Assembly: GCA_030390025.1 (NCBI GenBank)
Contig: CM059432.1
Location: 80,106,001-80,170,000, forward strand
Origin: Squalus acanthias
Lineage: Eukaryota
DNA: 64,000 nucleotides
Reading direction: 5' to 3'
Shown here: positions 970 through 40,554 of the stretch, one piece after another
Layout: each line of letters starts with the position of its first letter
Position numbering within the stretch: the stretch's first letter is position 1
Translations under genes and position numbers: made by a program
The notes under the pieces: model-generated
Database searches by the model: none
What the model saw: only the letters and a program-made list of their open reading frames with translations
Told to the model about the DNA's origin: nothing

Positions 970-3179
970 TCACGGAACATCACAGCGTCCTCCTGAGCAC
1001 AAAGCTGAAATGAGAGCCACCACAAAACACACATTCCAAACAAAATTAATAAATTTATCAAAATCCAATCTCAATGACAATACCAACGATTCACCCTTGT
1101 GCATTCCCTTGGTGTTGGTCTTTCGTGTGATTTTTCCTAGTCTAGTGGTCCTATGCAGTGCTCCCCCAGTGGCTGCAGCATGGCTGGTGGAAGGCTGCTG
1201 ACTTTCAGTGGTGGAGACTTCAGATGGCCTTGCAGGACAACCTTGAACAGCTCTGTACCCATAAGGCCCAGGCGTAGACTGCACCACCTTGGCATGGGCA
1301 GCAGCAGTCTGGGCTGGATGGCTGATAGGCAGCAGTAACGGCAATGGCGGAGTGGCAGTGGTGGGAGAAGGAATGCTGTCATCCTGAGAGAGGACAGCAG
1401 GTTCTTGCTCCAGAGACTCACTGCCACTTCCCTGGGGTGGCGCCTCAGCATTCCTAGCAATCTGTTGGAGCACAGATTGCTGGACTACTGTGACACCCTG
1501 CAAGCCCCTTTCGACACTCATAAACCCAATGATGATGGCAGCAGTCTGAGCTTGCGTGGCAGCAAGCTGAGCCTGCAGGAGAGCAGTCTGCACTTCCACT
1601 ACAGCACTGAGATGTTGGGTCGCTTCCGCCTGTGCTGCAATGGAAGCTGAAAGATCGCCCATCACACGCAGCATCATCCGTGGGTCCACAAGGTCTCTCC
1701 TGGAGTGGTCCATCATTTCCATCCTGGAAATCATGGGCTCCAAGCTCTGCACAAAGTCCTGTGCAATGTTGGAGCCGGACTCCTCCATGCTCCTTGACAT
1801 TGCCAAGAGGCTCTCTGGCAGGCTTGCCATTGCACCTAGCATTTTAGTGTGCATGGCCATCACCCTCCTTCTGAAGGCTGCCCCATCGAAGTCAACATCT
1901 GAGTCCTGTGGAGCAGAATTCATGTGCGAATTCGCCCTCCAGGGAGCTGACACCCGAGCTACCCTTTCCCCCTGACCTAGCTGCAGTCTACTCATGCCCG
2001 GTGCCTCATCACGTGCAGATCCCACCTCTATACTACCCTCTACATTCCGCACAGTACCATTTTCTGAGCTGGTGTCTGCGAGTGTCAGTATCTCTTCTTC
2101 TTCTTCTTCTTCTTCTCCTCCGTCAGTTTGCTGAAGATGATGAGGGACAAGCTGTGCTGGTGACACTTCTTGTGTATCTGAAAGCAGAAAGGCACAAGGA
2201 TCGGGTTGTCGTGAGGAGGCAGCAGTGGGAGGGTGGAAAGCAAGATATCCATGCATACACCTTCAGCAGCTTGTAAGTGAGCAGAGATTGTGGGATGAGG
2301 GGGAAGTGGGATGTGAAAAGAAGGATTAGATATGGCCATATCGTCATCAGCAGCAAAAGTTTCAACTTCTCCATTGTTACTGCCCCTCCAATAATTTGAA
2401 AGACGGATTCCTTGAGGTCAATCAGGATGTGAATCAATGTTCCTCGTAATTTCTTTTAGGCCGTGCAGCCCCTTTAACGGGCTGCGCGGCCCATTCAAAC
2501 GTCCGTGCATGTGCGCTTTTTCAATTTAAAAGCTGGCTCACCAGCTGCGCGGGAGGCCTGGAGCGCTGTGCGACCGCATGGCTGCGCAGCTTAAAGGGAA
2601 CATTGGTCTAAATCCTGGCTTGGCTGCCTCCCGTCTGTTGTTGCTCTCTGCCGTTGTGAGCCACCTTGGCCTGCAAGAGAAAGGGAAGTGTGTCAGTGAG
2701 TGTGGTGCAATGTGTTTGGGTGATGTGCCTGCCATGGTTGAATAGCTGTCAGTGTGTGCAAGGTGTGAGCAGTGGTAAGTGTGTGAGGGTGAAGTGAAGC
2801 CATGATTGTAAGGTATGAGTGGTGATAGCTAGAAATTGTTGATAGGTGATTGATGGGGTTGTGGTGCATTGAACAGTGTGTGAGGCTTGTGGTGGAGATG
2901 TTGGGATATGGCATTTGCTGAAGCCTTCACTTCACTCACCTTGATCAGCCGTGTGAGGTCATTAAACTTTTTGCGGCACTGGATCCATGTCCTTGGGACA
3001 ACTCTGGTGGCCGTGATGGAGTCAGCAATCTCTTCCCAAATCCTTCTGGTGATGAGCTTTGATGGCCTCTTGCCTCCCTACGGGTAAAGCACAGCCCGCC
3101 TTCGTTCCACCCCCAGGACCAAGGCCCCCAGTGCAACTTCGAAAAAACGTCTCGCTCTCCCTCTCGGCTGTTGGGCCAT
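970..3179 (-). pseudogene. Harbinger Myb/SANT-like partner gene (3 exons), decayed
   Basis: Exon 1 ~2940-3179 (..WIQCRKKFNDLTRLIK|GTGAGT), exon 2 ~2339-2670 (interrupted by a MITE), exon 3 within ORF 970-2256 after TTTCAG. Homologous to 16139-18020. Confidence 0.85.
2435..2605. mobile_element. Small hAT-like MITE inserted in Myb exon 2
   Basis: TIRs CAATGTTCC...GGAACATTG. Degenerate 8-bp flanks ATGTGAAT / GTCTAAAT (5/8 match). Confidence 0.6.
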
Positions 3180-5131: not shown

Positions 5132-8100
5132 TGTTCTGAGTACTGGTGGGGGCGATGCTTCCTCTGGGGAGCGCAGCTAGAGACAAGTCCACGACACCAC
5201 GGGTGGCTCAGCTGTACAGGTGGTGAGGAAAAAGAGTGGAAGAGCAATAGTGGTATGGGATTTGATCGTTAGGGGAGCAGATAGGCGTTTCTGCGGCCGC
5301 AGACATGACTCCAGGATGGTATGTTGTCTCCCTGGTGCCAGCGTCAAGGATGTCACTGAGCGGCTGCAGGACACTCTGAGGGTGGAGGGTGAACAGCCAG
5401 AGGTCGTTGTTCAACGAAATAGGCAGAAAGAGGGATGAGGTCCTGCAGGCAGAGTTTAGGGAGTTAAGGAGAGAGATTAAAAAGCAGGACCTCAAAGGTA
5501 GTAATCTCCAGATTACTCCTGGTGCCACACGCTAGTGAGTACAGGAATAGGAAGATAGAGCAGATGAATGCATGGATGGAGAGATGGTGCAGGAGGGAGG
5601 GCTTTAGATTCCTGAGGCATTGAGACCATTTCTGGGGAAGGTGGGACCTGTACAAGCCAGACGGGTTACACCTCAACAGAGCCGGGACCAATATTCTCAC
5701 GGGGAGGTTTGTTAGTGCTGTTGGGGAGGGTTTAAACTAGCTTGGTAGGGGGATGGGCACCAGCATATAGAAGTAGAAAAGAGGAATAAGGTGCATAAAA
5801 GAGTGAGTGTGTTGGATAGTACTAGAGAAGAAAGTAGTACTAGAGGCGGAATTAGTACCATATTAAATAGTAGCAGACTAAGAAAGACTTCGAAAAATTC
5901 AAAAATGGGTTTGAATGCATGTATGTAAACGTACAAAGTGTGGTGAATAAGGTTGGAGAGCTACAAGCGCAATTAGCTGTGTGGCAATATGATGTTGTGG
6001 CAATAACAGAAACGTGGCTTAAAAATGGTGAGTACTGGGCACTTAATATTCAAGGGTACAAGGTGTTCAGAAAAGATAGGGAAGGAAAAAAGGGAGGTGG
6101 GGTGGCAGTGCTGATTAAGGAAGACATTGTACTGTTGGAAAGGGAGGATGTTCTTGAGGGTACAAGGACAGAATCCATTTGGTTAGAGTTCAGGAGCAAA
6201 AAGGGTATGATCACGCTATTGGGGGTATTCTATAGGCCTCCAAATAGTGAGAGGGAGGTAGAGGAGCAAATCTGCAGGGAAATCGCAGAAATATGCAAGA
6301 GCGATAGAGTAGTGATATTGGGGGACTTTAATTACCCAAATAGCGATTGGGATAATGCTAGGGTAAAGGGAAAGGAGGGGGAGGAATTTCTGAAATGTGT
6401 TCAGGAGAATTTCCTTGACCAGTATGTTCTTGGCCCAACTAGGAAGGAGGCATTGCTGGATCTGGTGCTGGGGAATGAGATGGGCCAGGTCGACTAAGTG
6501 TCTGTGGGAAAACACTTGGGTACGAGTGATCATCATATCATAAGATTTAGATTAGCAATGGAGAGGAGCAAGGAACAATCTAGAGTGGAACTTTTAAACT
6601 GGAATAGGGCTAACTTCAATGGGATGCGAAAGGATCTAGCCAGGGTAAAATGGAACCAAAGACTGACAGGAAAAACTGTAATGGAACAATGGGTGATCTT
6701 CAAGGAGGAGATGTTCCAAGTACAGACTAGGTACATTCCAACATGAGGGAAGGGTAAGGGAACCAAAGCAAGGGCTCGTTGGATGACGAGGGAGATAGAG
6801 AAGATGATGAAACAAAAAAAGAGGATGTATGATGCATGTCAGGTGAATTCTTCAAGGGAGAACCAGACCAAATACAATAAGTTGAGAGGGGATGTGAAGA
6901 TGAATATAAGATTGGCAAAGAGAGAAAATGAGAGTAGAATGGCGGTTAACATAAAAGGGAACCCAAAAATCTTCTACCGGCATGTTAGTAGTAAGCAGGT
7001 AGTAAGAGGCGGGGTGCGGCCTATTAGGGACAAAGAAAGTGATATATGCTTAGAGGCGCAGGGCAAGGCTAGAATACTCAATGAGTACTTTGTATCAGTG
7101 TTTACTAAGGAGGTGGATGCTGACAAAATATCGGTAGAAGTGGAAAAGGCAGAAGCAATGGAAGGAGTGAAAATTGAAAGACAGGATGTACTAGAAAGGC
7201 TGGGTATGCTTACAGTGGATAAGTTGCCTGGTCCAGATGGTTGCTAAGGGAACTGGGGGAGGAGATAGCGGAAGGGCTTGCCATAATTTTCCAATCTTCC
7301 CTAGATGCGGGGGGAGGTGCCTGAGGATTGGAAAGTGGCAAATGTGACACCATTGTTCAAGAAAGGGTGTAAGGATAATCCTAGTAACTACAGGCCAGTC
7401 AGTTTAACATCAGTGGTGGGTAAAGATTTAGAAACAATAATAAAGGAAAAAATTAACGGGCACTTGGAAAGGTTTAAGCTAATTAAGGAGAGCCAACACA
7501 GATTTGTGAAAGGCAGATCATGTTTGATTAATCTAATTGAATTTTTTGATAAAGTAACAGGGAAGATTGATGAAGGAAATGCAATGGTTGTTGTCGACAT
7601 GGATTTTAGGAAGGCATTTGACAAAGTACCACATAGAAGGCTAGTTAACAAAATTGGGGCTCATGGAATAGGTAGGTCAGTGGCAGCTTGGATAAGGAAT
7701 TGGCTTAAGGACAGAAAACAGCGAGATGTGGTAAATGGCTGTTATTCAGACTAGAGGATGGTAGACAGTGGTGTTCCCAAAGGGTCAGTGCTGGGGCCAC
7801 TGCTTTTTTTGATATATATATAAATGACCTGGATATTGGAATACAGAGTAGAATTTCTAAATTTGCTGATGATACCAAACTTGGGGGTGTGGCAAACAAT
7901 GATGATGATACCAATCCACTGCAACAGGACATAGAAAGGCTAGCAGAATGGGCAGACAAGTGGCAGATGGAATTTAATACAGAGAAGTGTGAGGTGATGC
8001 ATTTTGTCAGAAGGAACAGGGAGAGGCAATATACACTTAATGGCACAGTTTTAAAGAGTGTGCAGGGACAGAGGGACCTGGGAGTTAATGTGCATAGGTC

Positions 8101-9757: not shown

Positions 9758-12211
9758 ATTGAGTACAAAAGTAGAGAAGTTATGCTGAACCTTTATAAAG
9801 CGCTGGTTAGGCCACATCTGCAGTATTATGTCCAGTTCTGGTCACCACACTTTAGGAATGATGTGAAGGCCCTGGAGAGGGTGCAGAGGAGATTTACCAG
9901 AATGGTTCCGGGGATGGGGGATCTTAGCTACAAGGACAGGTTGGAGAAGCTGGATTTGTTTTCATTAGAGCAAAGGAGGTTGAGGGGTGATTTGATAGAG
10001 GTGTACAAGATTATGATGGGTTTGGATAGGCTAGATGGGGAAAGGCTGTTCCCACTAGTTGATAGTACAAGGACTAGGGGACACAGATTGAAGGTTTTGG
10101 GCAAGAGATACAGGGAGGATGTGAGGAAAACCTTTTTTACGCAGCAAGTGGTGAGGACCTGGAACTCGCTGCCGATGGAAGTGGTGGAAGCAGAAACACT
10201 GAATGTTTTCAAGGGGAGACTGGATAGGCACTTGAGGGAAAAAAACATGCAGGGCTACGTGGATAGAGCGGGGGAATGGGACTGACTGGATTACTCTACA
10301 GAGAGCCAACACGTACTTGATGGGCCGAATGGCCTCCTCCTGTGCTGTTATGACTCTATGACCTCACACGGCAGGTCATATCCCACCATCTGCACCAGAA
10401 GCCTCACACACTGCTCAATGCACCACATCCCCATCACACACCTACCAACAATCTCTACCTTTCACCACTCAGACCTCACAAGCATTGCTTCACTCCACAC
10501 TCACAACCTTACCACTGCTGCAACAGTCACACCCAAATCTCTCACCTTGCACACACTGACAGCTATTCAACTATGGCAGGCACATCACCCAAACACATTG
10601 CACCGCACTCACTGACAGACTTCCCTTTCTCTTGCAGGCCAAGGTGGCTCACAGTCACCACAAGCAGCGGCAGACAGGAGGCGGCCAAGCTGCAATACAG
10701 GCCTTGAGCAAACTGGAGGAGTTGGTGCTCGACATCACTGGAGGGGAAGTCACCGAGGCCGTGGGAACAGGCGAAGTTGAAGCCCTTGTGGACAATAACG
10801 GTATGGTCATTCCTAATCCTTCTTCTCACATCCCCCTCATCCCACAATCTCTTCTCACTTACAAGCTGCTGATGCTGTATGCATGGATGTCTTCCTTTCC
10901 CTGCTTCCCCTCACCATAATCCAACTCTTGTGCTTTTCTGCTTTCAGATGACCAAGATCTGCCACCCACGCAGACTGTCCCCAAAGTAACGGAGGAGAGT
11001 GAAGGAGAAGTGAAGGTACACCGTCACTGCATCTGACACTCGCAGACACCAGCTCAGAAACTGGCACTGCGCGGAATTTAGAGGCTAGTGTAGATGCAGG
11101 ATCTGCACAGGGTGAGGCACCGGGCATGAGTGGGCTACAGCAGCCCAGGGGGATAGGGTAGTTCGTGGGCCAGGTCCCCGGAGGGCAGGTTCGCGGGCGA
11201 GTTCTGCTGTACATAACTCAGATGATGACCTCGATGGGGCGGCCTTCAGAAGAAGGGTGATGGCCATGCACACTAAAATGCTAGGTGCAATGGCAAGCCT
11301 GCCAGAGAGCCTCTTTTCAATGTCAAGGAGCATGGCGGAGTCCGGCTCCAACATTGGATGGGGCTTTGCACAGAGCTTGGAACCCATGATTTCCAGGATG
11401 GAAATGATGGACAACTCCAGGAGTGACCTTGTCGACCCAGCCATGATGCTGCGTGTGATGGGCGATGTCGCGGCTTCCATTGCAGCACAGGCGGAAGCGG
11501 CCCAACGTTTCAGTGCTGCAGTGGAAGTGCAGTCTGCTCTCCTGCAGTCTCAGCTTGCTGCCACGCAAGATCAGACTGCTGCCATCGTGGCTGGGTTTAC
11601 CAGTGTCAAAAGGGGCTTGCAGGTTGTCGCAGCAGCCCAGCAATATGTGCTCCAACAGATTGCTAGGAATGCTGAGGCGCCGCCCCAGGGTAGTGGCAGT
11701 GGGTCTGTCGAGCAGGAACCTGCTATTCTTTGTCAGGATGACAGCATTCCTGTTCCCACCACTGCCACTGCTCCATTGCCCTTGTCACTGCCTGTCAGCC
11801 AGCCAGCCCAGACTGCTGCTGCCTATGCCAAGGTGGTGCAGGCTACAGCCAGGCCTTCTAGGTCCACAGCTGGTTGAGGTCACCCTGCAAGGCCATCTGA
11901 AGTCTCCCCCCAGGGAAACTCAGGAGCCATGCTTCAGCCACTGGGGAAGCACTGTGTAGGAACACCAGAGTAGGAAAGGGCACACAAACGACAGGCTCTA
12001 AGGGATTGCCCAAGGGTGATCAGTTGATATTGTAATGTAAATTGAATAGTTATAAATTTATTAATTTTGTTTGGAATGTTTATTTTGTGGTGCCTCTCAT
12101 TTCAGCTTTGTGCCCCAGAGGACGCTGTGATATTCCATGACAGAGGGATGGTATGAGGGTGATGTGGTTGATAGGGATGTGGTGAACAATGGGGATCTGG
12201 GATTTCATTCA

Positions 12212-13700: not shown

Positions 13701-16138
13701 GTGAGTTACTTTCTAATCTTTTTCAGTTGAGAAAGAAAATCAATACCAGAGAGTTTTCACCCTCTATCTCAGATTAATTGAGGTGATTTTCAACTGTTGA
13801 ATGTCCAGTTCTTTTCTCAAAAATGGATGGACAGCAGTTGAAAATCGGCGAGGGAGGTGGGCGGGGGGGGTACCTCAGTTGCCCCACTGATGCCCAAAGC
13901 GAGCCTGTAAGTAGGCAAACAGCTTGCCTGCCCGTTTCTGCCAGGAGGCTGCTTAAATACATTGTTTATAGGATCCTGTTGGCAATTTTCAGGTACTAAC
14001 AGGCGGTGTGTGTACTGTGCATGCTGAAGAAATGGCGCACAAAGCATTTTGGGAAGATTTTTGTGGGACCAGTAGAAACAGGAGTGCTCCACCTAGCGCC
14101 ACAAAAATACTGTGAGCCACTGCCGGCCCGCGCTCAACCCTCTCTGGGATCAGCTCCCCCCTCCAGCCTAACCTACCAGCCAGCTCAGCGTGGGAGCAAG
14201 CCAATTGTCCACCCTTCCACTGCCCATTCGGCACCCTGCTGCAGCTTGCTGGTGGCATTCAAATGAAGCCCGACCGGAGAGGTGCCAAAGTTGACTTTGG
14301 ACAGACGCCGTACCCACTCCGCTGACTCCTTGCCCAGTCTGGGTAAACGATGTAAATTGCCACCATTATCTCTTCATTTTTTTTTCTTTCACATCACTTT
14401 TGTGGTTTAATCTTTTAAAGTTTTCTCCACCAACAACTAAGGCTGTATGAATATCAAAGGTATTTACTTTTATATGATTTACTATTGTTAATGTTGAATG
14501 AATTGCTTTTGCTGAGAGAAAGCATTCTTAAAGACATGCATAATATTTGACGTTTAGTCCTGCTGCACCACAGACCATGGGCCAGCCAAAAAGCCAACAG
14601 TGGAGCCAGCTGAGAGACTTTGGTATGAATTACTTTCTTATTTTCTCCTTCTTGCTGCGGGAAAGTGTCTGACTTCCATCTGGCAACTGTTCCTCTCATC
14701 CTCCACTAACCTGGCAGAGATAACACATTTTTGTGGATGGAGAAGCTGAAGACATGAAGATCAGCCTTTAATGGTGCCACATATAGGTGACTTGGGTTCA
14801 TCCACTTTGAAATGTTGTTACGGAAGGGAACCAGTTACTGAAAAATAGTGCAACAAGATGGTTTTCTGTTTTTTTTAAAATTTACTTTGAACTATTGGTA
14901 GGTCAAGGAAAAACTGCAAAAGCTTTCTTCAGCAGATAGAATGGATTGTACATGGTCTGGAAAAGGAGCGGGATCGGTGGGTCAAATAACATTTTCTTGC
15001 TTAACGCCTTGCTCTTACAGAAAGATATGTCTGTATAGAATCTATATATTCAAGTTCCGAAATAAATATAACTGTACACTCGAACTATTTAGATCAGCCA
15101 TGATCTAATTGAAAGGCAGAACGGGCTCAATGGCCTCGTCCTGTTCCCATGTTCCAAATGAATGAGTGGCTCAAAGACTGGTGTGGGAGAAATGAGTTTT
15201 GATTTGTGGGGCACTGGCACCAGTACTGGGATAAGAGGGAGCTGTTCCGTTTGGACGGGCTTCACTTGAACCATGCTGGGGCTAGAGTCCTGGCGATTCG
15301 AATAACTAGGGCTGTAGAGAGGGCTTTAAACTAAATAGTCGGGGGGAGGGTCCAGGTCAGCGGAAATTTAAAAAGTCAATGAGAAATGAGAAAGCAATAG
15401 AGCAGGATAGAGATGGGGGAAATAATAACCAGAGTGTGACAGGAAGGGACAGAATGTTTAAAAATAAGAGTGCAACAGAAAATGGGGCTAAAACAAGGAG
15501 AAATGGTAAAAAGACAAAGTTAAAAGCTCTATACCTGAATGCATGCAGCATTTGTAACAAGATAAATGAGTTGACGGCACAAATAGATACAAATGGGTAT
15601 GATCTGATCGCCATTACAGAGACATGGTTGCAAGGTGACCTGGGCTGGGAACTGAATATTCCAGGGTGTTTGACAATTCGGAAGGATAGACAGAAAGGAA
15701 AGGGAGGTGGGGTGGCTTTGTTGGTAAAGGATGGGATCAGTGCAGTGGTGAGAAGTGATATTGGCTCAGAAGATCAAGGGGGGAAAAATTCAGTATCGCC
15801 CCATTTGGGGCGCAATTATCGGCCGGGCGCAAAAATTAGCGCCTGGCGCTAATTATCGCCACTGACTGGAAACTTCACTTTTAACGCCCCGGGAGGTGAC
15901 TGGAGCGCTAAATCAGGCGCTGCACACCTGTCTTAAGGCGCAAAGGCCGAGGAGTGAGGCGCTAACTCAGAGCGCGAGCGCAGCGCAGGTGCTGCCAGTT
16001 AGCGAGGGAACACAGACACACTGGCGCCGGCCAGTTCTTAAAGGGGGGGGGGGCGATCTTGCTCCCCAGCCACACCCTGCTCATTGCAGCCTTGAATCTC
16101 GACCTGGAGAGACCTGACCTTCAATTTTCCAGCCAAGG

Positions 16139-18020
16139 ATGGAGAGGGCGAGAGTGCGAGCTCAGCGCTTCAGCGAGCGGGCCTTGGATGCTCTGGTTGG
16201 CGCGGTGGAGCGCCGAGGATCAACACTGTACCCTGAGAGTGGCAGGAGGCCTTTGCCGCGCGACTACAGAAGGGTGTGGAGGGAGGTGGCTCAGCACGTC
16301 TCCTCCAGGAGCATGGTGCCCAGGACCCATATACAATGCCGGAAAAAGTTCAACGACCTCACTCGGGTCGTCAGGGTGAGTGGCTTTTTTGCAATACCTC
16401 TCCATTCCTCCATCTCAGCCTCACTCTATGGCCAGAGGGTCTTAAAACCACAATTAACAGCACTCATCCAACACCTATGGCCCTTTCATGAAGCACACAC
16501 ACACATTCCACACTTTGCATACAGTAAGGGCTATTCACCTATGGGAGGCACATCAGGCAAGACCATGGCTGTAGTACAGTAAGGGCTATTCACCTATGGG
16601 AGGCACATCAGGCAAGACCATGGCTGTAGTACAGTAAGGGCTATTCACCTATGGGAGGCACATCAGGCAAGACCATGGCTGTAGTACAGTAAGGGCTATT
16701 CACCTATGGGAGGCACATCAGGTAAGACCATGGCTGTATATTTACTCAGACGCCGTCCTTTTTCTTGCAGGCCAAGCTGGCGCATAATAGGAGACAGCAG
16801 CAGCGGACGGGTGGAGGGCCGCCTCAGCTGCAACCCCTCAGCGATCTGGAGGAGCGCGTCCACAGGATTGTGGCAAGCCGGATGATCGGTCCCGTCGCCA
16901 CTGGAGACGCCGACCCCGTTCTGGACAGCAATGGTAAGGTCATCACCTTTTTGTCCTCTGTCCTTCCACTTGTCCCTCACAACACCAGCCTTTGACACTT
17001 TCAATCCAACTTACTAACTCGCTGCACTTATTCCTCCCTTACTGCCACCCTGTCCTCACGCTAAAGCCACTCTTGTACCTCCCTGCTTTCAGATGGTGAT
17101 TCACCAGCTGAGGAGACGGCCCTGAAGCTGCAGCTGAGGAGGAAGAGGAAGCCGGACCATCAGAGCCACCCTCTCCCGAGGAAGCCCATGCCAACACTGA
17201 GGACACGCCTTCCCTGGAGGGGAGCAGGGGGGAAGGGTCTGATGAGGGTGAAGCTCCAGGACCCAGCGGGCTGCAGCAACGCCATGGGGGTAGGGAAGCA
17301 CGGGGGCCTTTTCCCCGGAGGGAGAGTAGGCCAGCGAGTCCTGCTGCACTGGACGCAGAGGAGGAGCGGCTGATCGCGGAAATGAACACCCAGGCGGTGG
17401 CCATGCACACTGAGCTCATGGCTGCAGTGGGTAGGGTGCCCGAATGCATTGAAGCACTGGCAAGGAGTGTGGAGCACTTCGCTGCAGCGCAGGCGGATGC
17501 GACACTGAAGCTCAGTGCTGCAATTCAATCTCAGACTGCTCTCATGCAGACTCAGATTGAGGCCACGCGAGCACTGTCTGCTGCCATCCTCACTGGTTCG
17601 GACACATTTCCCCGGGGCTCTCACCGCGCCGCAGCAGGCCAGCAATCTGTGCTCCAGCAGATTGCTCCGGATGCTGAGGTGCTGCCCCGTGGGAGTGCCA
17701 GTGTGCCGGTCGAGCAGGGAGTTGCTGTCCTCGCTCAAGATGACAGCATTCCTGCTGCCACCACTGTCACTTCTCCACTGCAGTTGCCACCGCCTGTAGG
17801 ACAGACTGCTGCCGCCCATGCAGAGTTGGTGCAGTCTGCAGCCGGGCCCTCCAGGCCCAGAACTGGTCGAGGCCGTCCCTCAAGGGCATCTGCATTGTCA
17901 GGGCCTGACAGTCAGCAGCCTTCCACCAGCCTTGCTGCAGCCACTGAGGTCCCATTGCGGAGGAGCAGTAGGGTAAGAAGGGGGGAAGGGCGCACGGGAA
18001 GGAGTTCACCCTTGATGTAG
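16139..18020 (+). CDS. Myb/SANT-like DNA-binding partner protein (exons 16139-16375, 16771-16933, 17093-18020), apparent 1-nt frameshift near 17113
   Basis: RAQRFSERALDALV..W..VA..R...QCRKKFNDL trihelix signature and RTGGG motif. GT-AG introns at the same positions and phases as in copies A and B. Confidence 0.85.
16521..16738 (+). repeat. 4 x 55-bp near-perfect tandem repeat in intron 1 of the Myb-like gene
   Basis: Units start at 16521, 16576, 16631 and 16686. Confidence 0.95.
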
Positions 18021-18331
18021 GAGGTGTGACAAAATGCTGGTTATTTTTTTATTAAAGGCCGAGGTTCGAGGTCAAACTTTTGTTGAGTGTTTTGCACATG
18101 ATCTCCACATTGTGAGAACCAGTTATGGTAATGACTGTTTTTTTGTGTTTATTTGTATGAGTGTGTCATGAGTAAATGACACACACAGAGTTTGTAAAAT
18201 AAATAAGTTTTGGTACTCAAAATATACATGTTTGGTGTTTGGAATCATTGGTGCCTTGGCCGGCTTAGGGGTTGCGTGTTGGGTTAATTCATGCTGTTCT
18301 CAATGGCAGAAGCCATTTCCACAGCAGGGGC

Positions 18332-18439
18332 CTAGAAGCGGCTTGCTATCAGCCGTTGACGGACGGCCCTTGCAGTTTCACCATTGTGGGCCGCCCTCAC
18401 GCCTTGGTGCTGCTGCTGATCATCCTCCTCCTCCTCTTC

Positions 18440-18494
<55 letters not shown>

Positions 18495-19525
18495 GGTGGT
18501 GCTCCAAGGCCTGGTGGCATTGGCTGGGTCCTGAGGATTGCCATGTTATGCAGCATGCAGCACACAACTACGATGTGGGAAACTCGCTCAGGCGAGTACT
18601 GCAGGGCTCCTCCAGAATGGTCGAGACAGCGGAACCGTTGCTTGAGCACGCCGATTGTGTGCTCCACGATGTTCCTGGTAGCTTGATGGCTCTCGTTGTA
18701 CCGCAGCTCAGCAGGGGTGTTGGGCGTACGGAGCGGTGTCATCAGCCAGGTGCTCAGTGGATACCCCTTGTCCCCGAGAAGCCAACCAACTGGCTGATGC
18801 GGTGCCTCGAAAAGTTCTGCCACAGTAGTCTGGCGCAGGATGAAAGCATCGTGGCAGCTGCCAGGATAGTGGGCATTGACAGCGAGTATCAGCTGTCTGT
18901 GGTCACAGACCAACTGAACATTCAAGGAATGGAACCCCTTTCTGTTCCGGAAATCCTCGGCATTCTCATGCGGAGCACGCAAAGCCACATGCGTGCAGTC
19001 AATGGCGCCCTGCACCATGGGGAAGCCCGCTATCCTGGCAAAGCCCAGAGCGTGTTCTTGCTGCTTGTCTGGGGTCATGGGGAAAGAGATGAACTCTCGT
19101 CTCCTTTTAAAGAGGGCATTTGTGACCTTCCTGATGCAGCAATGCACCGCGAACTGGGAGAGATTGGCGATGTCCCCAACAGCAGATTGAAATGAGCCAG
19201 TAGCATAAAAGTTCAGAGCCACTGTGACCTTCACTGCCACCGACAGAGACGTCCTGGACCTCAGTTGAGGCTGCAGATCTGGCTGCAGCAGGTGGCAGAG
19301 CTCAGTGACCACCTCCTTGCTGAAGCGCAGCCTTCGCAGACACTGCTCATCAGACATATGAATGTAGGAGAGCTGTTCACGATATACCCTGGGAGGGTAA
19401 GCTCTCCTGTACAGACGCCTGTTGGCCCTCCTCCGTCTGGCCATCATTGCCACTCTCTCTCTGCGTCTCCGTCTCCTCCGATTCAGCTGGCACAGGACGA
19501 CGCCCCCCATCAGTGCAGCCCCCAT
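18332..19525 (-). CDS. Intact Harbinger/HARBI1-like DDE transposase, ~397 aa
   Basis: Uninterrupted ORF. ATG at 19525 (MGAAL, matching MGALL in copy B). AIDCTH, LLGDKGY and RNIVEHTIGVLKQRF supply D-D-E. C-terminal poly-Glu. Confidence 0.95.
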
Positions 19526-19719
19526 AGTCTCGTAGCAAGCAAAGTTATGAAGGCCAGAAACCAAAGTACCAGCGAAGTTATGATCAGTAGCCAAAACTAC
19601 CTCACACAGCGTTGACTCAATGCACAAGTCTCTCTCTCTCTCTCTCCGAATCTCTCTCTCTCTCTCAGAACGAGTGGTGCAAAAATGTCAACCACAGAGA
19701 AAGACAGGAAGAGGCCCCC

Positions 19720-19864
19720 TTTAAATAGCGCCCCCCCGAGCCCCACAGCGATTGTTAGCGTTCCACTCTACCGGTCGTTGGGTGCGCCAGGCGGTAAGGA
19801 TGGGGGCGCCACTGAATTTCTGCTCCGGGGCGCCACAAGGGCGTTGCACTCTCGTATGACGTCA
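19720..19864 (-). promoter_or_regulatory. Putative transposase promoter: CRE-like TGACGTCA plus TATTTAAA
   Basis: TGACGTCA at 19857-19864 and TATTTAAA at 19720-19727 (-). The same pair and spacing occur in copy B and in the MITE. Confidence 0.55.
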
Positions 19865-22800
19865 CAATCCGCGGGCGCAGGGGACCGCGGCGATAAAGTT
19901 TAGCGCCGCCGCAAAATGTCTAGTGAAGTTCCCGAGCGGCGCAAACATCGCTGCGCCCGGGCGCTAGCTGCTTTGCGCCCCATTAGCGCCCTCTTAAGGC
20001 GCTAACGGGAGGCGCAACCAACTGAATTTTTAGCCCAAGATGTAGAATCGGTTTGGGTGGAGATAAAAAATAATAAGGGGAAAAGGTCTCTGGTGGGCGT
20101 AGTCTACAGGCCCCCGAACTGTAGCAATACCGTTGGACAGAGTATAAATCAACAAATAATGGAGGCCTATAAAAAAGGTACGGTAATAATCATGGGTGAT
20201 TTTAATCTCCATATTGATTGGATAAATCAAATTGGGCATGGTAGCCTTGAGGAGGAGTTCATAGAGTGCATCCGGGATGGTTTCCTAGAACAGTATGTAA
20301 TGGAACCAACCAGGGAGCAGGCTATCTTGGATCTGGTACTGTGTAATGAGACAGAATTAATAAATGATCTCATTGTAAAGGATCCTCTAGGAAAGAGTGA
20401 TCATAGCATGGTTGAATTTCAAATTCAGTTGGAGGTGAGAAAGTTGTATCTCAAACGAGTGTCCTGATCTTAAACACAGGCAATTACAATGGCATGAGTG
20501 CAGAACTGGCTAAAGTGGACTGGAAAAATAAATTAAAGGGTAAGACAGTTGAAATGCAGTGGCGGACATTTAAGGAGATATTTCATAACTCTCAACAAAA
20601 ATATATTCCAGTGAGAAAGAAAGATTTTAAGAGAAGGGAGCACCATCCGTGGCTAACTAAGGAAGTAAAGGATGGTATCAAATTGAAAACGAAGGTATAC
20701 AATGTTGCCAAGATTGGTGGGAGACCAGAGGATTGGGAAATTTTTAAAAACCAGTAAAGGATGACTAAAAAAATAATAAAGAGAGAGAAGCTGAATTATG
20801 AGAGTAAACTGGCAAGAAATATTAAAACAGATAGTAAGAGCTTCTACAGGTATATAAAAAGGAAGAGAGTAGCTAAAGTAAACGTTGATCACTTAGAAAA
20901 TGAGACTGGGGAATTAATAACGGGGAACGGGGAAATGGCAGAGACTCTGAACAAATATTTTGTATCTGTCTTCACGGTAGAAGACACTAACAACATCCCA
21001 ATAATGGATAATCAAGGGGCCACAGGGAGGGGGGAACTAAAGACAATCACTATCACTATCACTAAGGAAATAGTACTTGGTAAAATAATGGGACTAAAAG
21101 ATGACAAGTCCCCTGGACCAGATGGCCTGCATCCCAGGGTCTTAAAAGAAGTGGCTGCAGAGATAGTGGATGCATTGGTTGCAATATACCAAAATTCCCT
21201 GGACTCTGGAGAGGTCCCAGCGGATTGGAAAACCGCAAATGTAACACCCCTATTTAAGAAAGGAGGGAGACAGAAAGCAGGAAACTATAGACCAGTTAGC
21301 CTAACATCTGACGTTGGGAAAATGCTGGAGTCCTTCATTAAGGAAGCAGTAGCAGGGCATTTGAAAAATCATAATGCAGTCAAGCAGAGTCAGCATGGTT
21401 TTATGAAAGGGAAATCATGTTTAACAAATTTGCTAGAGTTCTTTGAGGATGTAATGAGCAGGGTGGACAAAGGTGAGCCAGTGGATGTGGTGTATTTGGA
21501 TTTCTAGAAGGCATTCAATAAGGTGCCACATAAAAGGTTACTGCATAAGATAAGAGCTCACGGAGTTGGGGGTAATATATTAGCATGGATAGAGAATTGG
21601 CTAACTAACAGAAAGCAGAGAGTCGGGATAAATGGGTAATTTTCCGGTTGGCAAACGGTAACTAGTGGGGTGCCACAGGGATTGGTGCTGGGGCTTCAAC
21701 TATTTACAATCTACATTAATGACTTGGATGAAGGAACCGAGTGTAATGTAGCCAAGTTTGCAGATGATACAAAGATGGGTGGGAAAGCAAGTTGTGCAGA
21801 GGACTCAAAGAATCTGCAAAGGGATATAGACAGGTTAAGTGAGTGGGCAAACATTTGGCAGATGGAGTATAATGTGGGAAAGTGCGAGGTTATCTACTTT
21901 GGCAGGAAAAATAAAAAAGCAAATTATTATTTAAATGGAGAGAGATTACAAAATGCTACAGTTCAGAGGGACCTGGGGGTCCTTGTGCATGAAACACAAA
22001 ACGTTAGCATGCAGGTACAGCAAGTAATCAAAAAGGCAAATGGAATGTTGGCCTTTATTTCAAGGGGGTTGGAGTATAAAAGCAGGGAAGTCCTGCTACA
22101 ACTGTACAAGGTATTGGTGAGACCACATCTTGAGTACTGCGTACAGTTTTGCTCTCCTTATTTAAGGAAGGATATACTTGCATTGGAGGCAGTTCAGAGA
22201 CGATTCACTAGGTTAATTCCAGAGATGAGGGGGTTGACTTACGAGGAAAGGTTGAGCAGGTTGGGCCTATACTCATTGGAATTTAGAAGAATGAGAGGTG
22301 ATCTTATTGAAACATATAAGATACTGAGGGGGCTCGACAGGGTAGATGCAGAGAGGATGTTTCCCCTCGTGGGGAAATCTAGAACTCGGGGGCATAGTTT
22401 CAGAATAAAGGGTCGCCCTTTTAGAACTGGGATGAGGAGGAATTTCTTCTCTCAGAGGGCCATAAATCTGTGGAATTCTCTGCCGCAGAGAGCCGTGGAG
22501 GCTGGGTCATTAAATACATTTAAGGTTGAGATAGACAGATTTTTGCAAGATAAGGGAGTGAAGGGTTATGGGGAGTGGGCAGGGAAGTGGCTTTGAGCTC
22601 AAGATCAGCCATGATCTTATTGAATGGCGGAGCAGGCTTGAGGGGCCAAATGGCCTATTCCCGCTCCTATTTCTTATGTTCTTATGGAAAAATAATAATG
22701 TTAAAAGCACTCCAATCAGGTTTCTGCCCCACTACAGGACTGAAACGGCCCTAATCAACATCATTATATACGCTGTGGCTGTGACCATGGTGCACTATCC

Positions 22801-24947: not shown

Positions 24948-26996
24948 TAAACAATGGTGTCACATTTGCCACTTTCCAATCCTCAGGCACCTCCCCCGCA
25001 TCTAGGGAAGATTGGAAAATTATGGCAAGCCCATCCGCCATCTCCTCCCCCAATTCCCTTAGCAACCTGGGATGCAAGCCATCTGGGCCAGGTGACTTGT
25101 CCACTCTAAGCATACCCAGCCTTTCTAGTACATCCTGTCTATCAATTGTCACCCCTTCCATTGCTTCTACCTTTTCCACTTCTACCGATATTTTGTCAGC
25201 ATCCACCTCCTAAGTAAACACCGATACAAAGTACTCATTGAGTATCTAGCCTTGCCCTGCTCCTCTAGGCATATATCACCTTCTTTGTCTCTAATAGGCC
25301 CCACCCCGCCTCTTACTACCCGCTTACTGTTTACATGCCGGTAGAAGATTTTTGGGTTCCCTTTTATGTTAACCACCATTCTACTCTCATATTCACTCTT
25401 TGCCAATCTTATTTTCATCTTCACATCCCCTCTCAACTTATTGTATTTGGTCTGGTTCTCCCTTGAAGAATTCACCTGACATGCATTTGCACCCTCTTTT
25501 TTTGTTTCATCATCTTCTCTATCTCCCTCGTCATCCAAGGAGCCCTTGCTTTGGTTCCCTTACTCTTACCTCTTGTTGGAATGTACCTAGCCTGTACTTG
25601 GAACATCTCCTCCTTAAAGATCACCCATTGTTCTGTTACAGTTTTAACTGTCAGTCTTTGGATCCATTTTACCCTGGCTAGATCCTATCGCATCCCATTG
25701 AAGTTAGCCCTATTCCAGTTTAGAAGTTCCACTCTAGATTGTTCCTTGCTCCTCTCCTTTGCTAATCTAAATCTTATGATACGATGATCACTCATACCCA
25801 AGTGTTCTCCCATAGACACTTGGTCGACCTGGCCCACCTCATTCCCAATCACCAGATCCAGCAATGCCTCCTTCCTAGTTGGGCCAAGAACATATTGGTC
25901 AAGGAAATTCTCCCGAACACATTTCAGAAATTTCTCCCCCTCCTTTCCCTTTACCCTAGCATTATCCCAATCGATATTTGGGTAATTAAAGTCCCCCAAT
26001 ATCACCACTCTATAGCTCTTGCATATCTCTGCGATTTCCCTGCAGATTTGCTCCTCTACCTCCCTCTCACTATTTGGAGGCCTATAGAATACCCCCAATA
26101 GCGTGATTGTATCCTTTTTGCTTCTCATCTCTAACCAAATGGATTCTGTCCTTGTCCCCTCAAGAACATCCTCCCTTTTCAACACTACAATGTCTTCCTT
26201 AATCAGCACTGCCACCCCACCTCCTTTTTTTCCTTCCCTATCTTTTCTGAACACCTTGTACCCTTGAATATTAAGTGCCCAGTCCTCACCGTTTTTAAGC
26301 CACTTTTCCGTTATTCCCACACAACTAATTGTGCTTGTAGCTCACCAACCTTATTCACCATACTTTGTGCGTTTACGTACATGCATTCTAAACCCATTTT
26401 TGAATTTTTCATCGTCGTCTTTCTTAGTCTGCTCCTATCTAATATGGTACTACTACTGCCTCTAGTACTATCTTCTCTCGTACTATCCAACACACTCACT
26501 CTTTTATGCACCTTATTCCTCTTTTCTACTCCTATCTGCTGGTACCCATCCCCCTACCAAGCTAGTTTAAACCCTCCCCAACAGCACTGACAAACCTCCC
26601 CGTGAGAATATTGGTCTCGGCTCTGTTGAGGTGTAACCCGTCCGGCTTGTATAGGTCCCACCTTTCCCAGAAACGGTCCCAATGCCTCAGGAATCTAAAG
26701 CCCTCCCTCCTGCACCATCTCTCCAGCCATGCATTCATCTGTTCTATCTTCCTATTCCTGTACTCACGAGCACGTGGCACCTGGAGTAATCCGGAGTTTA
26801 CTACCTTTGAGGTCCTGCTTTTTAATCTGTCTCCTAGCTCCCTAAACTCTGCCTGCAGGACCTCATCCCTCTTTCTGCCTATGTCGTTGGTACCGATATG
26901 GACAACGACCTCTGGCTGTTCACCCTTCCCCCTCAGAGTGTCCTGCAGCCGCTCAGTGACATCCTTGACGCTGGCCCCAGGGTGGCAACGTACCAT

Positions 26997-36658: not shown

Positions 36659-39600
36659 TTATACAGCATGGATAGAGGCCCTTCGGCCCATTGTGTCCGC
36701 GCCGGCCATCAAGCCCTGTCTAATCTTATCCCATATTCCAGCATTTGGTCCGTAGCCTTGTATGCTATGGCATTTCAAGTGCTCATCCAAATGCTTCTTG
36801 AATGTTGTGAGGGTTCCTGCCTCCACAACCCTTTCAGGCAGTGAGTTCCAGACTCCAACCACCCTCTGGGTGAAAAAGTTCTTTCTCAAATCCCTTCTAA
36901 ACCTCCCGCCCTTTACCTTGAATCTATGCCCCCTTGTTATAGACCCCTCTACTAAGGGAAAAAGCTCCTTAGTATCCATCCTATCTATGCCCCTCATAAT
37001 TTTATACACCTCAATCATGTCCCCCCTCAGCCTCCTCTGCTCCAAGGAAAACAAACCCAATCTGCCCAGTCTCTCTTCATAGCTGAAGCACTCCAGCCCG
37101 GGTAACATTCTGGTGAATCTCCTCTGCACCCTCTCCAAAGCGATCACATCCTTCCTGTAGTGTGGCGACCAGAACTGCACATAGTATTTCAGATGTGGCC
37201 TAACCAGTGTTTTATAGAGCTCCATCATAACCCCCTTGCTCTTATATTTTATGCCTCGGCTAATGAATGCAAGTATCCCATATGCCTTTTTTATCACCTT
37301 ATCCACCTGTTCCGCCGCCTTCAGGGATCTGTGTACTTGCACACCAAGATCCCTCTGACCCTCCGTCTTGCCTAGGGTCTTACCATTCATTGTGTATTCC
37401 CTTGCCTTGTTAATCCCTCCAAAGTGCATCACATCGCACTTTTCCGGATTAAATTCCATTTGCCACTGTTCCGCCCATCTGACCAACCCATCTATATCGT
37501 CCTGCAGACTGAGGCTACCCTCCTCGCTATTTACCACCCTACCAATTTTTGTATCATCCGCAAACTTACTGATCATACCTTTTACATTCATATCCAAGTC
37601 GTTAATGTAGACCACAAACAGCAAGGGACTCAGCACCGATCCCTGTGGTACCCCACTGGCCACAGGCTTCCAGTCACAAAAACAACCTTCGACCATCACC
37701 CTCTGCCTTCTGCCACTGAGCCAGTTTTGTATCCAATGTGCCAAGGCACCCTGGATTCCATGGGCTCTTACCTTCTTGACCAGTGTCCTGTGCGGGACTT
37801 TATCGAAGGCCTTACTGAAATCCATGTATACCACATCCACTGCGTTACCCTCATCCACGCACCTAGTCACCCCCTCAAAAAATTCAATCAAATTAGTCAG
37901 ACATGATCTTCCCTTGACAAAGCCATGTTGGCTAACTCTGATTAATCCTTGCCTCTCCAAGTGGAGACTAATTTTGTCCCTCAGAATTTTTTCCAATAAT
38001 TTTCCTACCACTGATGTTAGGCTCACTGGCCTGTAGTTCCCCGGTTTTTCCCTACTCCCTTTCTTGAATAATGGTACTACATTAGCGGTTCTCCAGTCCT
38101 CTGGCACATCCCCTGTGGCCAGAGAGGTTCTGAATATATGTGTTAGAGCCCCCGCAATCTCCTCCTTTGCCTCACACAGCAGCCTGGGATACATTTCGTC
38201 CGGATCTGGGGATTTATCCATTTTTAGACCTGCTAAAACCGCCAATACCTCCTCCCTCTCGATGTTAAAATGTTCGAGTATATCACAGTCCCCCTGCCCT
38301 AATTTTATGTCTGCATCGTCCTTCTCCATAGTGAAAACAGATGCAAAAAATCCATTTAGAACCCCACCTACATCTTCCGGCTCCACACACAGATTGCCAC
38401 TTTTGTCCCTAATGGGCCCTATTTTTTCCCTAGTTATCCTCTTACCCTTAATATACTTATAAAACATCTTAGGATTTTCCTTTATTTTGCTCGCCAGTGT
38501 TATTTCATGGCCCCTCCTTGATCTCCTAATTTCTTTTTTAAGTATCCCCCTGCACTTTTTGTACTCCTCTAGGGCTTCCTCCGTCTTTAGCATTTTGTAT
38601 CTGCCAAAAGCCCTCCTTTTTTTCCTGATCCATTCTCGTATATCCCCTGACATCCAAGGTTCCCTGGGGTTTTTGGAACCACCCTTGACCTTTACGGGAA
38701 CATGCTGCCATTGTATGATCTCAATCTCCCTTCTGAAAGAATCCCATTGCTCCGATGCGGATTTTCCTACAAGCAGCTGATCCCAGTCCATTTTGGCCAG
38801 ATCCTGCCTTATCCTATTAAAATCGGCCTTCCCCCAATTTAGAACCTTTATTTCCGGCCCATCCCTCTTCTTTTCCATGACCACCTTAAATCTCACCGTA
38901 TTATGGTCGCTGTCACCAAAGTGCTCACCTACTAGCACTTCTTCCACTTGGCCGGCCACATTCCCTAGAATTAGGTCCAGTACCGCCCCTTCTCTTGTAG
39001 GATTTTCTACATGCTGGCTCAAAAAGCTCTCCTGGATGCACTTTAAGAATTTTGAACCCTCTAAGCCTTTCACACTCTGACTATCCCAGTTAATATTGGG
39101 GAAGTTGAAATCCCCCATTATTATTACCCTATTATTTGCACATTTCTCTGAGATTTGCCTACATATCTGTTCCTCTATCTCCCCCTGACTGTTTGGGGGC
39201 CTATAGTACGCTCCCAGCAAAGTGCTTGCCCCCTTTTTGTTGTTAAGCTCCACCCATATAGCCTCATTGGAGGAACCTGCTAATATTTCATCCCTCCTTA
39301 TGGCAGTAATTGATTCCTTAATTAATATTGCGACACCCCCTCCTCTTATACCTCCCCCTCTGTCTCGCCTGAAGATTCTGTACCCCGGAATATTGAGCTG
39401 CCAGTCTTGCCCCTCCCTCAACCATGTCTCCGTGATAGCAATAATATCATACTCCCATGTGTTTACCAACACCTTCAGTTCATCCACCTTATTCGCTAGA
39501 CTCCTTGCATTAAAATAGATGCCTTCCAGCCTTGCTCTTACATGTTTTCCCTGTCTTCCAAGCTGACTTGTTTTTTTCTCTATATTTGACTGTACATCAC

Positions 39601-40258
39601 CCCCTATTGTAGCTCCACTCTGTATCCCATCCCCCTGCCAAGTTAGTTTAACCCCCCCCCCAACAGTGCTAGCAAACCTCCCCGCAAGGATATTTGTCCC
39701 GCTCTGGTTCAGGTGCAAACAGTCCGACTTGTACAAGTCCCACCTTCCCCAGAAGCAGGACCAGTGATCCAGGAAACTAAAACCCTCCCTCCTGCACCAA
39801 CTCTTCAGCCACGCATTCATCTGTTCTATCCTCCTATTCCTATACTCACTAGCACGTGGCACTGGGAGTAATCCAGAGATTACAACCTTTGAGGTCCTGC
39901 TCTTTAATCTGCTGCCTAGCTCCCTAAATTCTTGATGCAGGACCTCATCCCCCTTCCTACCTATGTCGTCGGTCCCAATGTGAACCACGACCTCTGCCTG
40001 CTCACCCTCCCCCTTAAGAATGCCCTGTAGCCGCTCAGTGACATCCATGACCCTGGCCCCAGGGAGGCAACAAACCATCCTGGAGTCACGTTTACGGCCA
40101 CAGAAACGCCTATCTGTTCCCCTTACGATAGAATCCCCTACCACTATTGCTCTCCCACTCTTTTTCCTCCCTTTCTGAGCAACAGAAGCAACCCTGGTGC
40201 CAGGAAGTTGGCTGCTGCCGCTCTCCCCTGGTGAGTCATCCCCCTCAACAGTATCCAA
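36659..40258 (-). CDS. Continuous CR1 ORF1 esterase (SGNH) - APE endonuclease - reverse transcriptase frame
   Basis: GDS, HIGTDD and DCLH esterase blocks; NARS, ITETW, YRPP, GDFN and SDH APE motifs; PQGSVL and FADD RT motifs. The normal ORF1 stop is bypassed by a G10 run and the normal ORF2 stop (after GIWD) is lost. Confidence 0.88.
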   Translation of the reverse strand: MDTVEGDDSPGESGSSQLPGTRVASVAQKGRKKSGRAIVVGDSIVRGTDRRFCGRKRDSRMVCCLPGARVMDVTERLQGILKGEGEQAEVVVHIGTDDIGRKGDEVLHQEFRELGSRLKSRTSKVVISGLLPVPRASEYRNRRIEQMNAWLKSWCRREGFSFLDHWSCFWGRWDLYKSDCLHLNQSGTNILAGRFASTVGGGVKLTWQGDGIQSGATIGGDVQSNIEKKTSQLGRQGKHVRARLEGIYFNARSLANKVDELKVLVNTWEYDIIAITETWLREGQDWQLNIPGYRIFRRDRGGGIRGGGVAILIKESITAIRRDEILAGSSNEAIWVELNNKKGASTLLGAYYRPPNSQGEIEEQICRQISEKCANNRVIIMGDFNFPNINWDSQSVKGLEGSKFLKCIQESFLSQHVENPTREGAVLDLILGNVAGQVEEVLVGEHFGDSDHNTVRFKVVMEKKRDGPEIKVLNWGKADFNRIRQDLAKMDWDQLLVGKSASEQWDSFRREIEIIQWQHVPVKVKGGSKNPREPWMSGDIREWIRKKRRAFGRYKMLKTEEALEEYKKCRGILKKEIRRSRRGHEITLASKIKENPKMFYKYIKGKRITREKIGPIRDKSGNLCVEPEDVGGVLNGFFASVFTMEKDDADIKLGQGDCDILEHFNIEREEVLAVLAGLKMDKSPDPDEMYPRLLCEAKEEIAGALTHIFRTSLATGDVPEDWRTANVVPLFKKGSREKPGNYRPVSLTSVVGKLLEKILRDKISLHLERQGLIRVSQHGFVKGRSCLTNLIEFFEGVTRCVDEGNAVDVVYMDFSKAFDKVPHRTLVKKVRAHGIQGALAHWIQNWLSGRRQRVMVEGCFCDWKPVASGVPQGSVLSPLLFVVYINDLDMNVKGMISKFADDTKIGRVVNSEEGSLSLQDDIDGLVRWAEQWQMEFNPEKCDVMHFGGINKAREYTMNGKTLGKTEGQRDLGVQVHRSLKAAEQVDKVIKKAYGILAFISRGIKYKSKGVMMELYKTLVRPHLKYYVQFWSPHYRKDVIALERVQRRFTRMLPGLECFSYEERLGRLGLFSLEQRRLRGDMIEVYKIMRGIDRMDTKELFPLVEGSITRGHRFKVKGGRFRRDLRKNFFTQRVVGVWNSLPERVVEAGTLTTFKKHLDEHLKCHSIQGYGPNAGIWDKIRQGLMAGADTMGRRASIHAV

Positions 40259-40554
40259 ATCGGTATACCTGTTTGAAAGGGGGATGACCGCAGGGGTCCC
40301 CTGTACTTCCTGCCTGCCTGTGCAGCCCTACCCTGCGGCGTGACCAACTCACTAAACGTGTTATCCACGACCCTCTCAGCATCGCGTATGCTCCAAAACT
40401 CATCCACCCGCAGCTCGAGCGCCGCAATGCGGTCTACAAGTAGCTGCAGCTGGATGCATTTCTCGCACACATGGTCCCCAGGGACACTGGCAGCGTCCCT
40501 GAATTCCCACATGGAGCAAGAGGAGCATAACACAGGGCTGATCTCACCTGCCAT
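40144..40554 (-). pseudogene. CR1 ORF1 N-terminus (CxxC..CxxC zinc finger / leucine zipper), frameshifted from the esterase
   Basis: LCSSCSMWE..VCEKCIQLQLL..IAALELRV, homologous to 52399-52740. Confidence 0.85.

Follow-up and report, generated by a model that had tools for sequence, protein, structure and literature searches.

The CR1 LINE elements of Squalus acanthias carry at the very end of ORF1 the heptamer T TTA AAC, directly followed by a stop codon, and this heptamer is a real and deeply conserved signal. It lies in the phase of a -1 slip site relative to ORF1, it is conserved at its silent sites, the -1 frame beyond it is open into the endonuclease of ORF2, and no start codon of ORF2 is common to the CR1 families. 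CR1 elements thus probably employ programmed -1 ribosomal frameshifting (PRF), which would yield an ORF1-ORF2 fusion protein of ca. 1,290 residues.

CR1 junctions in the window

The window, i.e. the whole stretch of 64,000 nucleotides that was analysed (80106001-80170000, in a genome of 3.7 Gb), was crowded with CR1 LINE fragments. Five ORF1/ORF2 junctions belonged to CR1 LINE copies with an SGNH-esterase ORF1 and an endonuclease-reverse transcriptase (RT) ORF2, and were sorted into four families: A (5.7 and 26.5 kb), B (15.3 kb), C (39.6 kb) and D (53.3 kb). Assignment to CR1 was made on the basis of Pfam domain order, which in a CR1 copy was Lipase_GDSL_2, Exo_endo_phos and RVT_1 (SGNH esterase of ORF1, APE endonuclease and RT), together with the by-eye resemblance of the window junctions to published rows labelled LINE/CR1, in the part of these rows that was covered. 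In the same partial comparison, family D matched the rows SquAca_CR1-17a and -6c. Additionally, three open frames of the window produced no Pfam match: 973-2262 (-) of 430 codons, 11116-11874 (+) of 253 codons, and 57235-57885 (+) of 217 codons.

All five heptamers were identified where the preliminary description had placed them, each followed by an in-frame stop codon: TTTAAAC from 5731 (+), 15325 (+) and 26571 (-), and GTTAAAC from 39652 (-) and 53346 (+). The 15.3 kb copy of family B begins with a 3′ fragment of ORF1 (15156-15334 (+)), which encodes the C-terminus of the esterase (...RAVERALN) and ends in the stop codon TAA at 15332-15334. A -1-frame stop TAG at 15307-15309 (+), six codons 5′ of the heptamer, limits the overlap of ORF1 and ORF2 to 22 nt. 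T TTA AAC, the candidate slip site, occupies 15325-15331 (+) and has X XXY YYZ phase relative to ORF1. Downstream of it lie a G-rich tract (15340-15350 (+), beginning 8-11 nt past the heptamer), which is a candidate stimulator without a detected fold, a -1-frame linker without stops between slip site and endonuclease (15335-15531 (+)), and the start of the ORF2 APE endonuclease in the -1 frame (15532-15778 (+)). The copy is dead, being 5′-truncated at 15156 and interrupted by a DDE_Tnp_4 DNA transposon of 4.26 kb (15779-20035), a later insertion with no role in the mechanism; the remainder of ORF2 (endonuclease end and RT) follows at 20036-22590 (+).

The inserted transposon contains the DDE_Tnp_4 ORF at 18335-19687 (-), a second ORF without Pfam match at 17112-18017 (+), and a 55-nt tandem repeat at 16465-16738, and is presumably of the PIF/Harbinger type. 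Related transposon ends interrupt other CR1 copies of the window, e.g. near 8156.

Both family A copies have the junction T TTA AAC TAG, at 5731-5737 (+) and at 26565-26571 (-). The junction of the family C copy is located at 39646-39652 (-), and that of the family D copy at 53346-53357 (+), where G TTA AAC is continued by TAATG, a stop-start overlap with the ATG in the -1 frame. The first G in these two copies is private. In family C, T is present at this position in 28 of 30 relatives (T TTA AAC TAA), and in the cluster of family D TTTAAAC is found in 24 of 33 members and GTTAAAC in the window copy only.

The distance from the heptamer to the first strand of the endonuclease was 207 nt at 15.3 kb and 135 nt at 39.6 kb, both without a stop, 192 nt with one stop at 26.5 kb, 191 nt at 5.7 kb (1 nt short), and 214 nt at 53.3 kb (1 nt long); three window copies therefore keep the phase, and the other two deviate from it by one base. 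This agrees with the earlier statement that ORF2 is exactly in the -1 frame at 15.3 and 26.5 kb. A single-base indel had been proposed to displace ORF2 from the -1 frame in the three other copies, which holds for 5.7 and 53.3 kb. The extra base of the 39.6 kb copy is instead upstream of the heptamer, in a G run, so that ORF2 is exactly -1 to TTA AAC TAA and ORF1 reads through into ORF2 in frame. This family C copy has one open frame of 1,222 codons (36659-40327 (-)), in which esterase, endonuclease and RT are fused.

A -1-frame TAG downstream of the heptamer in the two family A copies (5746-5748 and 26554-26556) had been regarded as counter-evidence to a fusion. This objection has lapsed, as the TAG is a rare mutation, present in 13 copies versus 1,029 copies with CAG genome-wide, and absent from all 29 other top copies of family A. 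On the same counts, a TAG-bearing lineage within family A was rejected. Two of the 13 rare-TAG copies are located in the window, 21 kb apart and in opposite orientation. They share 331/350 identities, versus 333 with the best other copies, and thus show no clear excess of similarity to one another, and their occurrence in one window is due to local conversion or chance.

Conservation of the heptamer in the genome

Since every window copy is damaged, the frameshift reading was tested on families. ORF1 ends were counted genome-wide by using the esterase motif DGLHL as anchor, with any Leu codon, any Asn codon and a stop at fixed distance. Of the 26,395 Leu-Asn-stop ends thus obtained, 25,169 (95.4%) had exactly TTTAAAC-stop. 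A reversed-pattern control gave 0-4 matches versus about 13,000 per strand, which shows that the Leu-Asn-stop matches are not chance. A count of 32,471 ends in which YT occupies the Leu position was left out of the analysis, as it mixes decayed and indel-shifted copies.

Because young families dominate the genome-wide counts, the test was also made at the level of families. For each window family, 30 related loci were collected with queries ending before the heptamer, and to these 120 relatives were added 34 loci from the anchor-only list and 56 from the Leu-Asn-stop list. The resulting 210 loci comprised 196 distinct ORF1 ends, of which 17 remained single and the others fell into 18 clusters of several copies. 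All singletons were left out, as was a cluster that consisted of two family B copies with an insertion, resulting in 17 families with 49-91% identity (median 66%) over the stretch compared. The families share ancestry and hence are not 17 independent trials.

Majority codons were determined in each family from the copies with the stop in frame. Leu and Asn codons, which had been predicted to vary freely if the heptamer had no function, did not vary at all: TTA and AAC were the majority codons in 17 of 17 families, and the preceding nucleotide was T in all 17. The codon before TTA was GCT, GGT, CAT or GAT (Ala, Gly, His or Asp), i.e. T-ending in every family, and the ORF1 stop was TAA in 11 families and TAG in 6. 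Among the other conserved columns, eight of Leu are encoded by 2-6 codons each, and three of Asn by both codons. Single-codon columns are 4 of the 25 invariant degenerate columns in ORF1, two of them outside the heptamer (Pro CCA and His CAC), and one endonuclease column is likewise single-codon (Asp GAT). In six ORF1 copies, TTA accounts for 15 of 152 Leu codons.

The -1 frame and the start of ORF2

The -1 frame was open to the endonuclease in all of the families in which the start of the endonuclease was located (16/16). In each of these 16 families the modal linker is a multiple of three when counted from the first T of the heptamer, with 12 different modal lengths of 135-264 nt. Among the 99 copies of modal length 88 were stop-free, when the other frames had medians of 2-12 stops and shuffled linkers were stop-free with a probability of 0.0005-0.076. 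Three families are represented in this test by one or two copies, and in family D the phase is kept by just 11 of 21 copies, a loss attributed to an unstable G run.

ORF2 lacks a usable start of its own. Met is absent before the endonuclease in 5 of the 16 families and scattered from codon 3 to codon 58 in the other 11. In 9 of 20 long loci the -1 frame extends over 965-997 codons, counted from the heptamer, and the first Met in these long open copies was at codon 255 (two copies), 166 (three), 178 (one) or 19 (three); in family C no Met precedes codon 178. The endonuclease covers approximately codons 45-250 of the -1 frame, so that AUG initiation would cut away its first catalytic strands, as we assume from the residues of the L1 endonuclease. 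Ten forms occur at the codon that overlaps the stop, and family D alone among the 17 families has ATG there. Within 12 codons of the heptamer ATG, CTG, GTG, ACG or TTG is found in only 4 of 17 families, and 6 families have no start, not even a weak one.

Upstream of the heptamer, the -1 frame is closed by a stop at a distance of six codons in 16 of 17 families (TAG in 14 and TAA in 2), under different ORF1 residues. This leaves a 22-nt overlap without a start codon, and an ORF2 start inside the overlapping ORF1 was therefore rejected. By eye, TGA is seen at the same place in an alligator row and TAG in the Aldrovandia row, in the part of the published rows that was covered. The protein sequence would permit this stop in 59 of 90 homologues, no more often than at some neighbouring pairs.

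ORF2 might alternatively be reached by termination-coupled reinitiation near the ORF1 stop, in the -1 frame and with or without AUG as in SART1 and L1, and ORF2p would then be a separate protein. We consider this unlikely. The TAATG of family D suits such a mechanism, and the open linker would be expected with reinitiation too. Additionally, in 16 of 17 families most copies have UGGGA, which we take to be a TURBS motif, at 30-110 nt before the stop, but its position differs by clade, it is missing in the young family 9, and it occurs in 52 of 258 other 80-nt windows. In the parts covered of the publications, the stop-start of SART1 and an unclear mechanism in L1 are documented (PMC3708506, PMC5009743). 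Reinitiation explains, however, neither the invariant TTA, AAC and upstream T nor the constant -1 frame; a start codon overlapping or adjoining the stop is confined to the ATG of one family in 17, and the starts near the heptamer are as scarce as given above. What counts against frameshifting in turn is the Met that occurs somewhere in the linker in 11 of 16 families, and the UAAUG of family D.

Occurrence in other vertebrates

CR1 elements of many other vertebrates seemingly carry the same slip sequence at the end of ORF1. A search for homologues, restricted to proteins of 302 residues or more, found 149. Leu-Asn is the C-terminus of 90 among the 120 listed, and these come from sharks, rays, coelacanth, a teleost, frogs, turtles, lizards and birds. 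The residue before Leu-Asn takes 13 forms in these 90 proteins, and residues that have no T-ending codon (Lys, Glu, Gln, Met and Trp) occupy this position in 3 of 90, versus 37 and 40 of 90 at the two preceding positions. Four read-through copies show F-K-L, which is the -1 reading of TTT AAA CT. An E-L-N end, with which the first U is impossible, was found in three proteins (P0006, P0075 and P0076), and one chimaera protein ends LNY.

The supplement of PMC13343379 was compared by eye over the first 400 letters of each consensus sequence, and counts in this part of it have no true denominator. TTTAAAC-TAR matched at ORF1 ends in 17 of 20 cases, with 11 species codes that we interpreted as alligator, crocodile, bullfrog, coelacanth, bowfin, halosaur, chimaera, two rays and two sharks. 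In the same letters, TAG preceded by any of six alternative codon pairs gave 14 matches, none of them at an ORF1 end.

Among distant homologues, P0084 and P0106 end Q-G-N and might carry G GGA AAC instead. The distant esterase ORF1s P0110, P0111, P0113 and P0134 end LN at other distances from DGLHL, and a distant read-through member continues as F-K-L-V-G-K-G-G into the endonuclease, on the basis of which the signal may reach beyond vertebrates. Searches for relatives in metagenome contigs and viral contigs gave none that was confirmed. Pieces of CR1 ORF1 are also included in host gene models of rays, for example "40S ribosomal protein S24 isoform X2" and "hydroxyacid oxidase 2 isoform X1".

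Alternatives outside translation

The motif could be kept for a non-translational task, i.e. as a protein-binding site in DNA or RNA, an internal promoter, or a splice or packaging signal, with ORF2 made from a spliced or shorter RNA, but we find this very improbable. Two published CR1 rows from shark (SquAca_CR1-3 and -18, in the part of the PMC13343379 supplement covered) contain a similar string, GGTTTAAACTAR and then G-rich letters, in their AT-rich 5′ UTR, and GTTTAAAC is palindromic in some families. The motif is, however, codon-phased with both ORFs, and the linker is open in one frame. With regard to splicing, no GT-AG was seen among the 13 joints listed from four contig sets, and one contig of 2,374 nt was colinear across the junction; the RNA status of these contigs was guessed, and both observations weigh little.

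Fusion at the level of nucleic acid, by slippage of polymerase or RT in G or T/A runs with a base added to some transcripts, has hardly any probability. In its favour, 22 of the first 100 listed copies from families with an upstream G8 run, including the 39.6 kb copy, have +1 or +4 bases, by which the frames are fused, and in family C the G run that precedes the heptamer is one base longer in 9 of 30 copies, which leads to read-through (the window copy, L002, L004, L007, L011, L019, L020, L022 and L023). The full distribution in these first 100 was +1 in 17, +4 in 5, +3 in 11, +5 in 6, +2 in 3, -1 in 7, -3 in 1, and unchanged in 50. As +3, +5 and -1 are common too, the G8 run is simply unstable; moreover, most families lack the G8 run and still keep the heptamer, and the invariant part UUUAAAC is no homopolymer. 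An excess of in-frame fusions in the G8 run was considered as a possible sign that fusions transpose better; the G7 run that served as control is shorter and stable.

That Leu-Asn ends the esterase fold and its codons are merely inherited would fit the two single-codon ORF1 columns outside the heptamer, but appears largely refuted and next to impossible, when no other Leu column is fixed, the T before TTA is constant while the amino acid changes, the letters are identical from shark to crocodile in the part of the published rows covered, and the AUG-less ORF2 is left unexplained.

Candidate downstream stimulator

Four of the features that define PRF were found in CR1, and the usual feature of RNA structure was not; the stimulator is the weak point of the frameshift reading. 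In 15 of 16 copies the first GGG begins at +8 to +11 nt relative to the heptamer, at the place expected for the start of a stimulator, but no more than 10 of the 16 have a four-run G2 pattern. Nested folding of the 90 nt past the heptamer in 16 copies gave no conserved fold (z from -2.3 to +2.0). Duplex scans of whole elements gave no consistent long-range partner for the G tract (best duplex -24.0 versus -22.1 ± 2.0 for shuffled sequences) and no partner position common to 20 long copies. The pseudoknot or hairpin which in PRF usually is located 5-9 nt downstream was accordingly not found by nested folding and duplex scans.

In the part covered of PMC3919603, G-quadruplexes 6-8 nt behind U_UUA_AAC lead to shifting of up to ca. 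7%. Upstream GA-rich sequence is described in the covered part of PMC13341110 as prolonging the pause at termination, yet it lowered random slippage at the stop codon there. For the pause at the adjacent stop codon, which is a candidate stimulator of CR1, this partly covered result cuts both ways.

Proposed mechanism

CR1 RNA would be translated from the ORF1 start, and most ribosomes would end at the UAA or UAG past Leu-Asn and release an ORF1 protein of ca. 315 residues. A minority of ribosomes would move one base back on U UUA AAC, continue through a flexible linker of 45-88 codons, and reach the endonuclease and RT, with the fusion of ca. 1,290 residues as the predicted product and ...X-L-N-L... 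as its junction. One putative stimulator is the G tract, which may form a quadruplex or bind a protein at the mRNA entry channel; another is the pause at the directly adjoining stop codon, in which case slippage may take place before or after translocation. No protease was among the Pfam matches of CR1, and the fusion would accordingly remain uncleaved.

Tandem slippage on U UUA AAC gives ...X-Leu-Asn-Leu..., and the peptides with ALKL or AFKL, which had been suggested as markers of the fusion, are thus not its canonical product. The Gag-Pol-like fusion itself, as put forward in the preliminary description, gained support from the fixed codons (17/17) and the open -1 frame (16/16). From these sequence features we infer that ribosomes shift at the heptamer, and the efficiency of the shift and the identity of its stimulator are likewise predictions. 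U_UUA_AAC is among the most shift-prone heptamers according to the part covered of PMC5009743.

Significance and comparison with known systems

Translation of LINE ORF2 is a long-standing question, to which the answers so far have been unusual initiation (L1 and SART1). If the conserved slip site works, a major vertebrate LINE clade uses a retrovirus-like solution. The predicted CR1 enzyme would then change from an ORF2p of ca. 110 kDa to a protein of ca. 145 kDa with the ORF1 esterase, and CR1 ORF2 annotations without a consistent start would be explained. CR1 elements would also provide natural variants, in the tens of thousands, of a frameshift signal without visible RNA structure. We suggest tentatively, and as somewhat short of an even chance, that the canonical CR1 lineage, which dominates among the LINEs of most vertebrate groups, has kept one -1 site for over 400 million years for an esterase-endonuclease-RT fusion that is driven by a stop codon and a G tract and not by a pseudoknot. 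A non-LTR element would then follow a Gag-Pol-like strategy, and its natural frameshift stimulator would be of a type not described before; neither has so far been demonstrated in print.

No report on CR1 frameshifting was found in the open literature covered, to which the founding CR1 papers do not belong. Haas et al. 2001 reportedly noted in their abstract that one chicken subfamily lacks the first Met of ORF2 and that expression of ORF2 may take place in fusion with ORF1, and Kajikawa et al. 1997 are said to have described overlapping ORFs. For this reason the idea of an ORF1-ORF2 fusion is probably not new; the clade-wide evidence of a slip site appears to be, and the -1 frameshift route is not established for CR1-class elements. 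In the parts covered of the sources, LINE ORF2 is attributed to unusual initiation, with CR1 unmentioned (PMC5009743), frameshifting is mentioned for retroviruses only (PMC11835228), and the word "frameshift" is absent from the SART1-related PMC3708506.

The vertebrate CR1 elements with an esterase ORF1 in PMC13343379, PMC4316615 and PMC3905857 have the same order of esterase, APE and RT; in the parts covered, ORF1p and ORF2p are treated as separate proteins and "frameshift" is absent from the main text. The gag frameshift of HeT-A is likewise in a non-LTR element, but it is located within gag, and HeT-A is without RT and forms no ORF1-ORF2 fusion (PMC5009743, part covered). With the UAAUG of SART1 and the AUG-independent initiation of L1, CR1 shares a bicistronic LINE RNA and a low level of ORF2, and family D has the UAAUG as well; in CR1, however, no start codon is common to the families, and the conserved letters precede the stop and form a slip site. 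The heptamer and its phase are those of coronavirus -1 PRF on U_UUA_AAC. As in retroviral and LTR Gag-Pol, a structural ORF is upstream and the polymerase ORF is in the -1 frame without a start of its own, and the overlap is short (22 nt in CR1). In contrast to both of these systems, in place of a detected pseudoknot or hairpin CR1 has a purine-rich unstructured linker and a G tract, the 0-frame stop follows directly after the heptamer, and the host of the signal is a non-LTR element.
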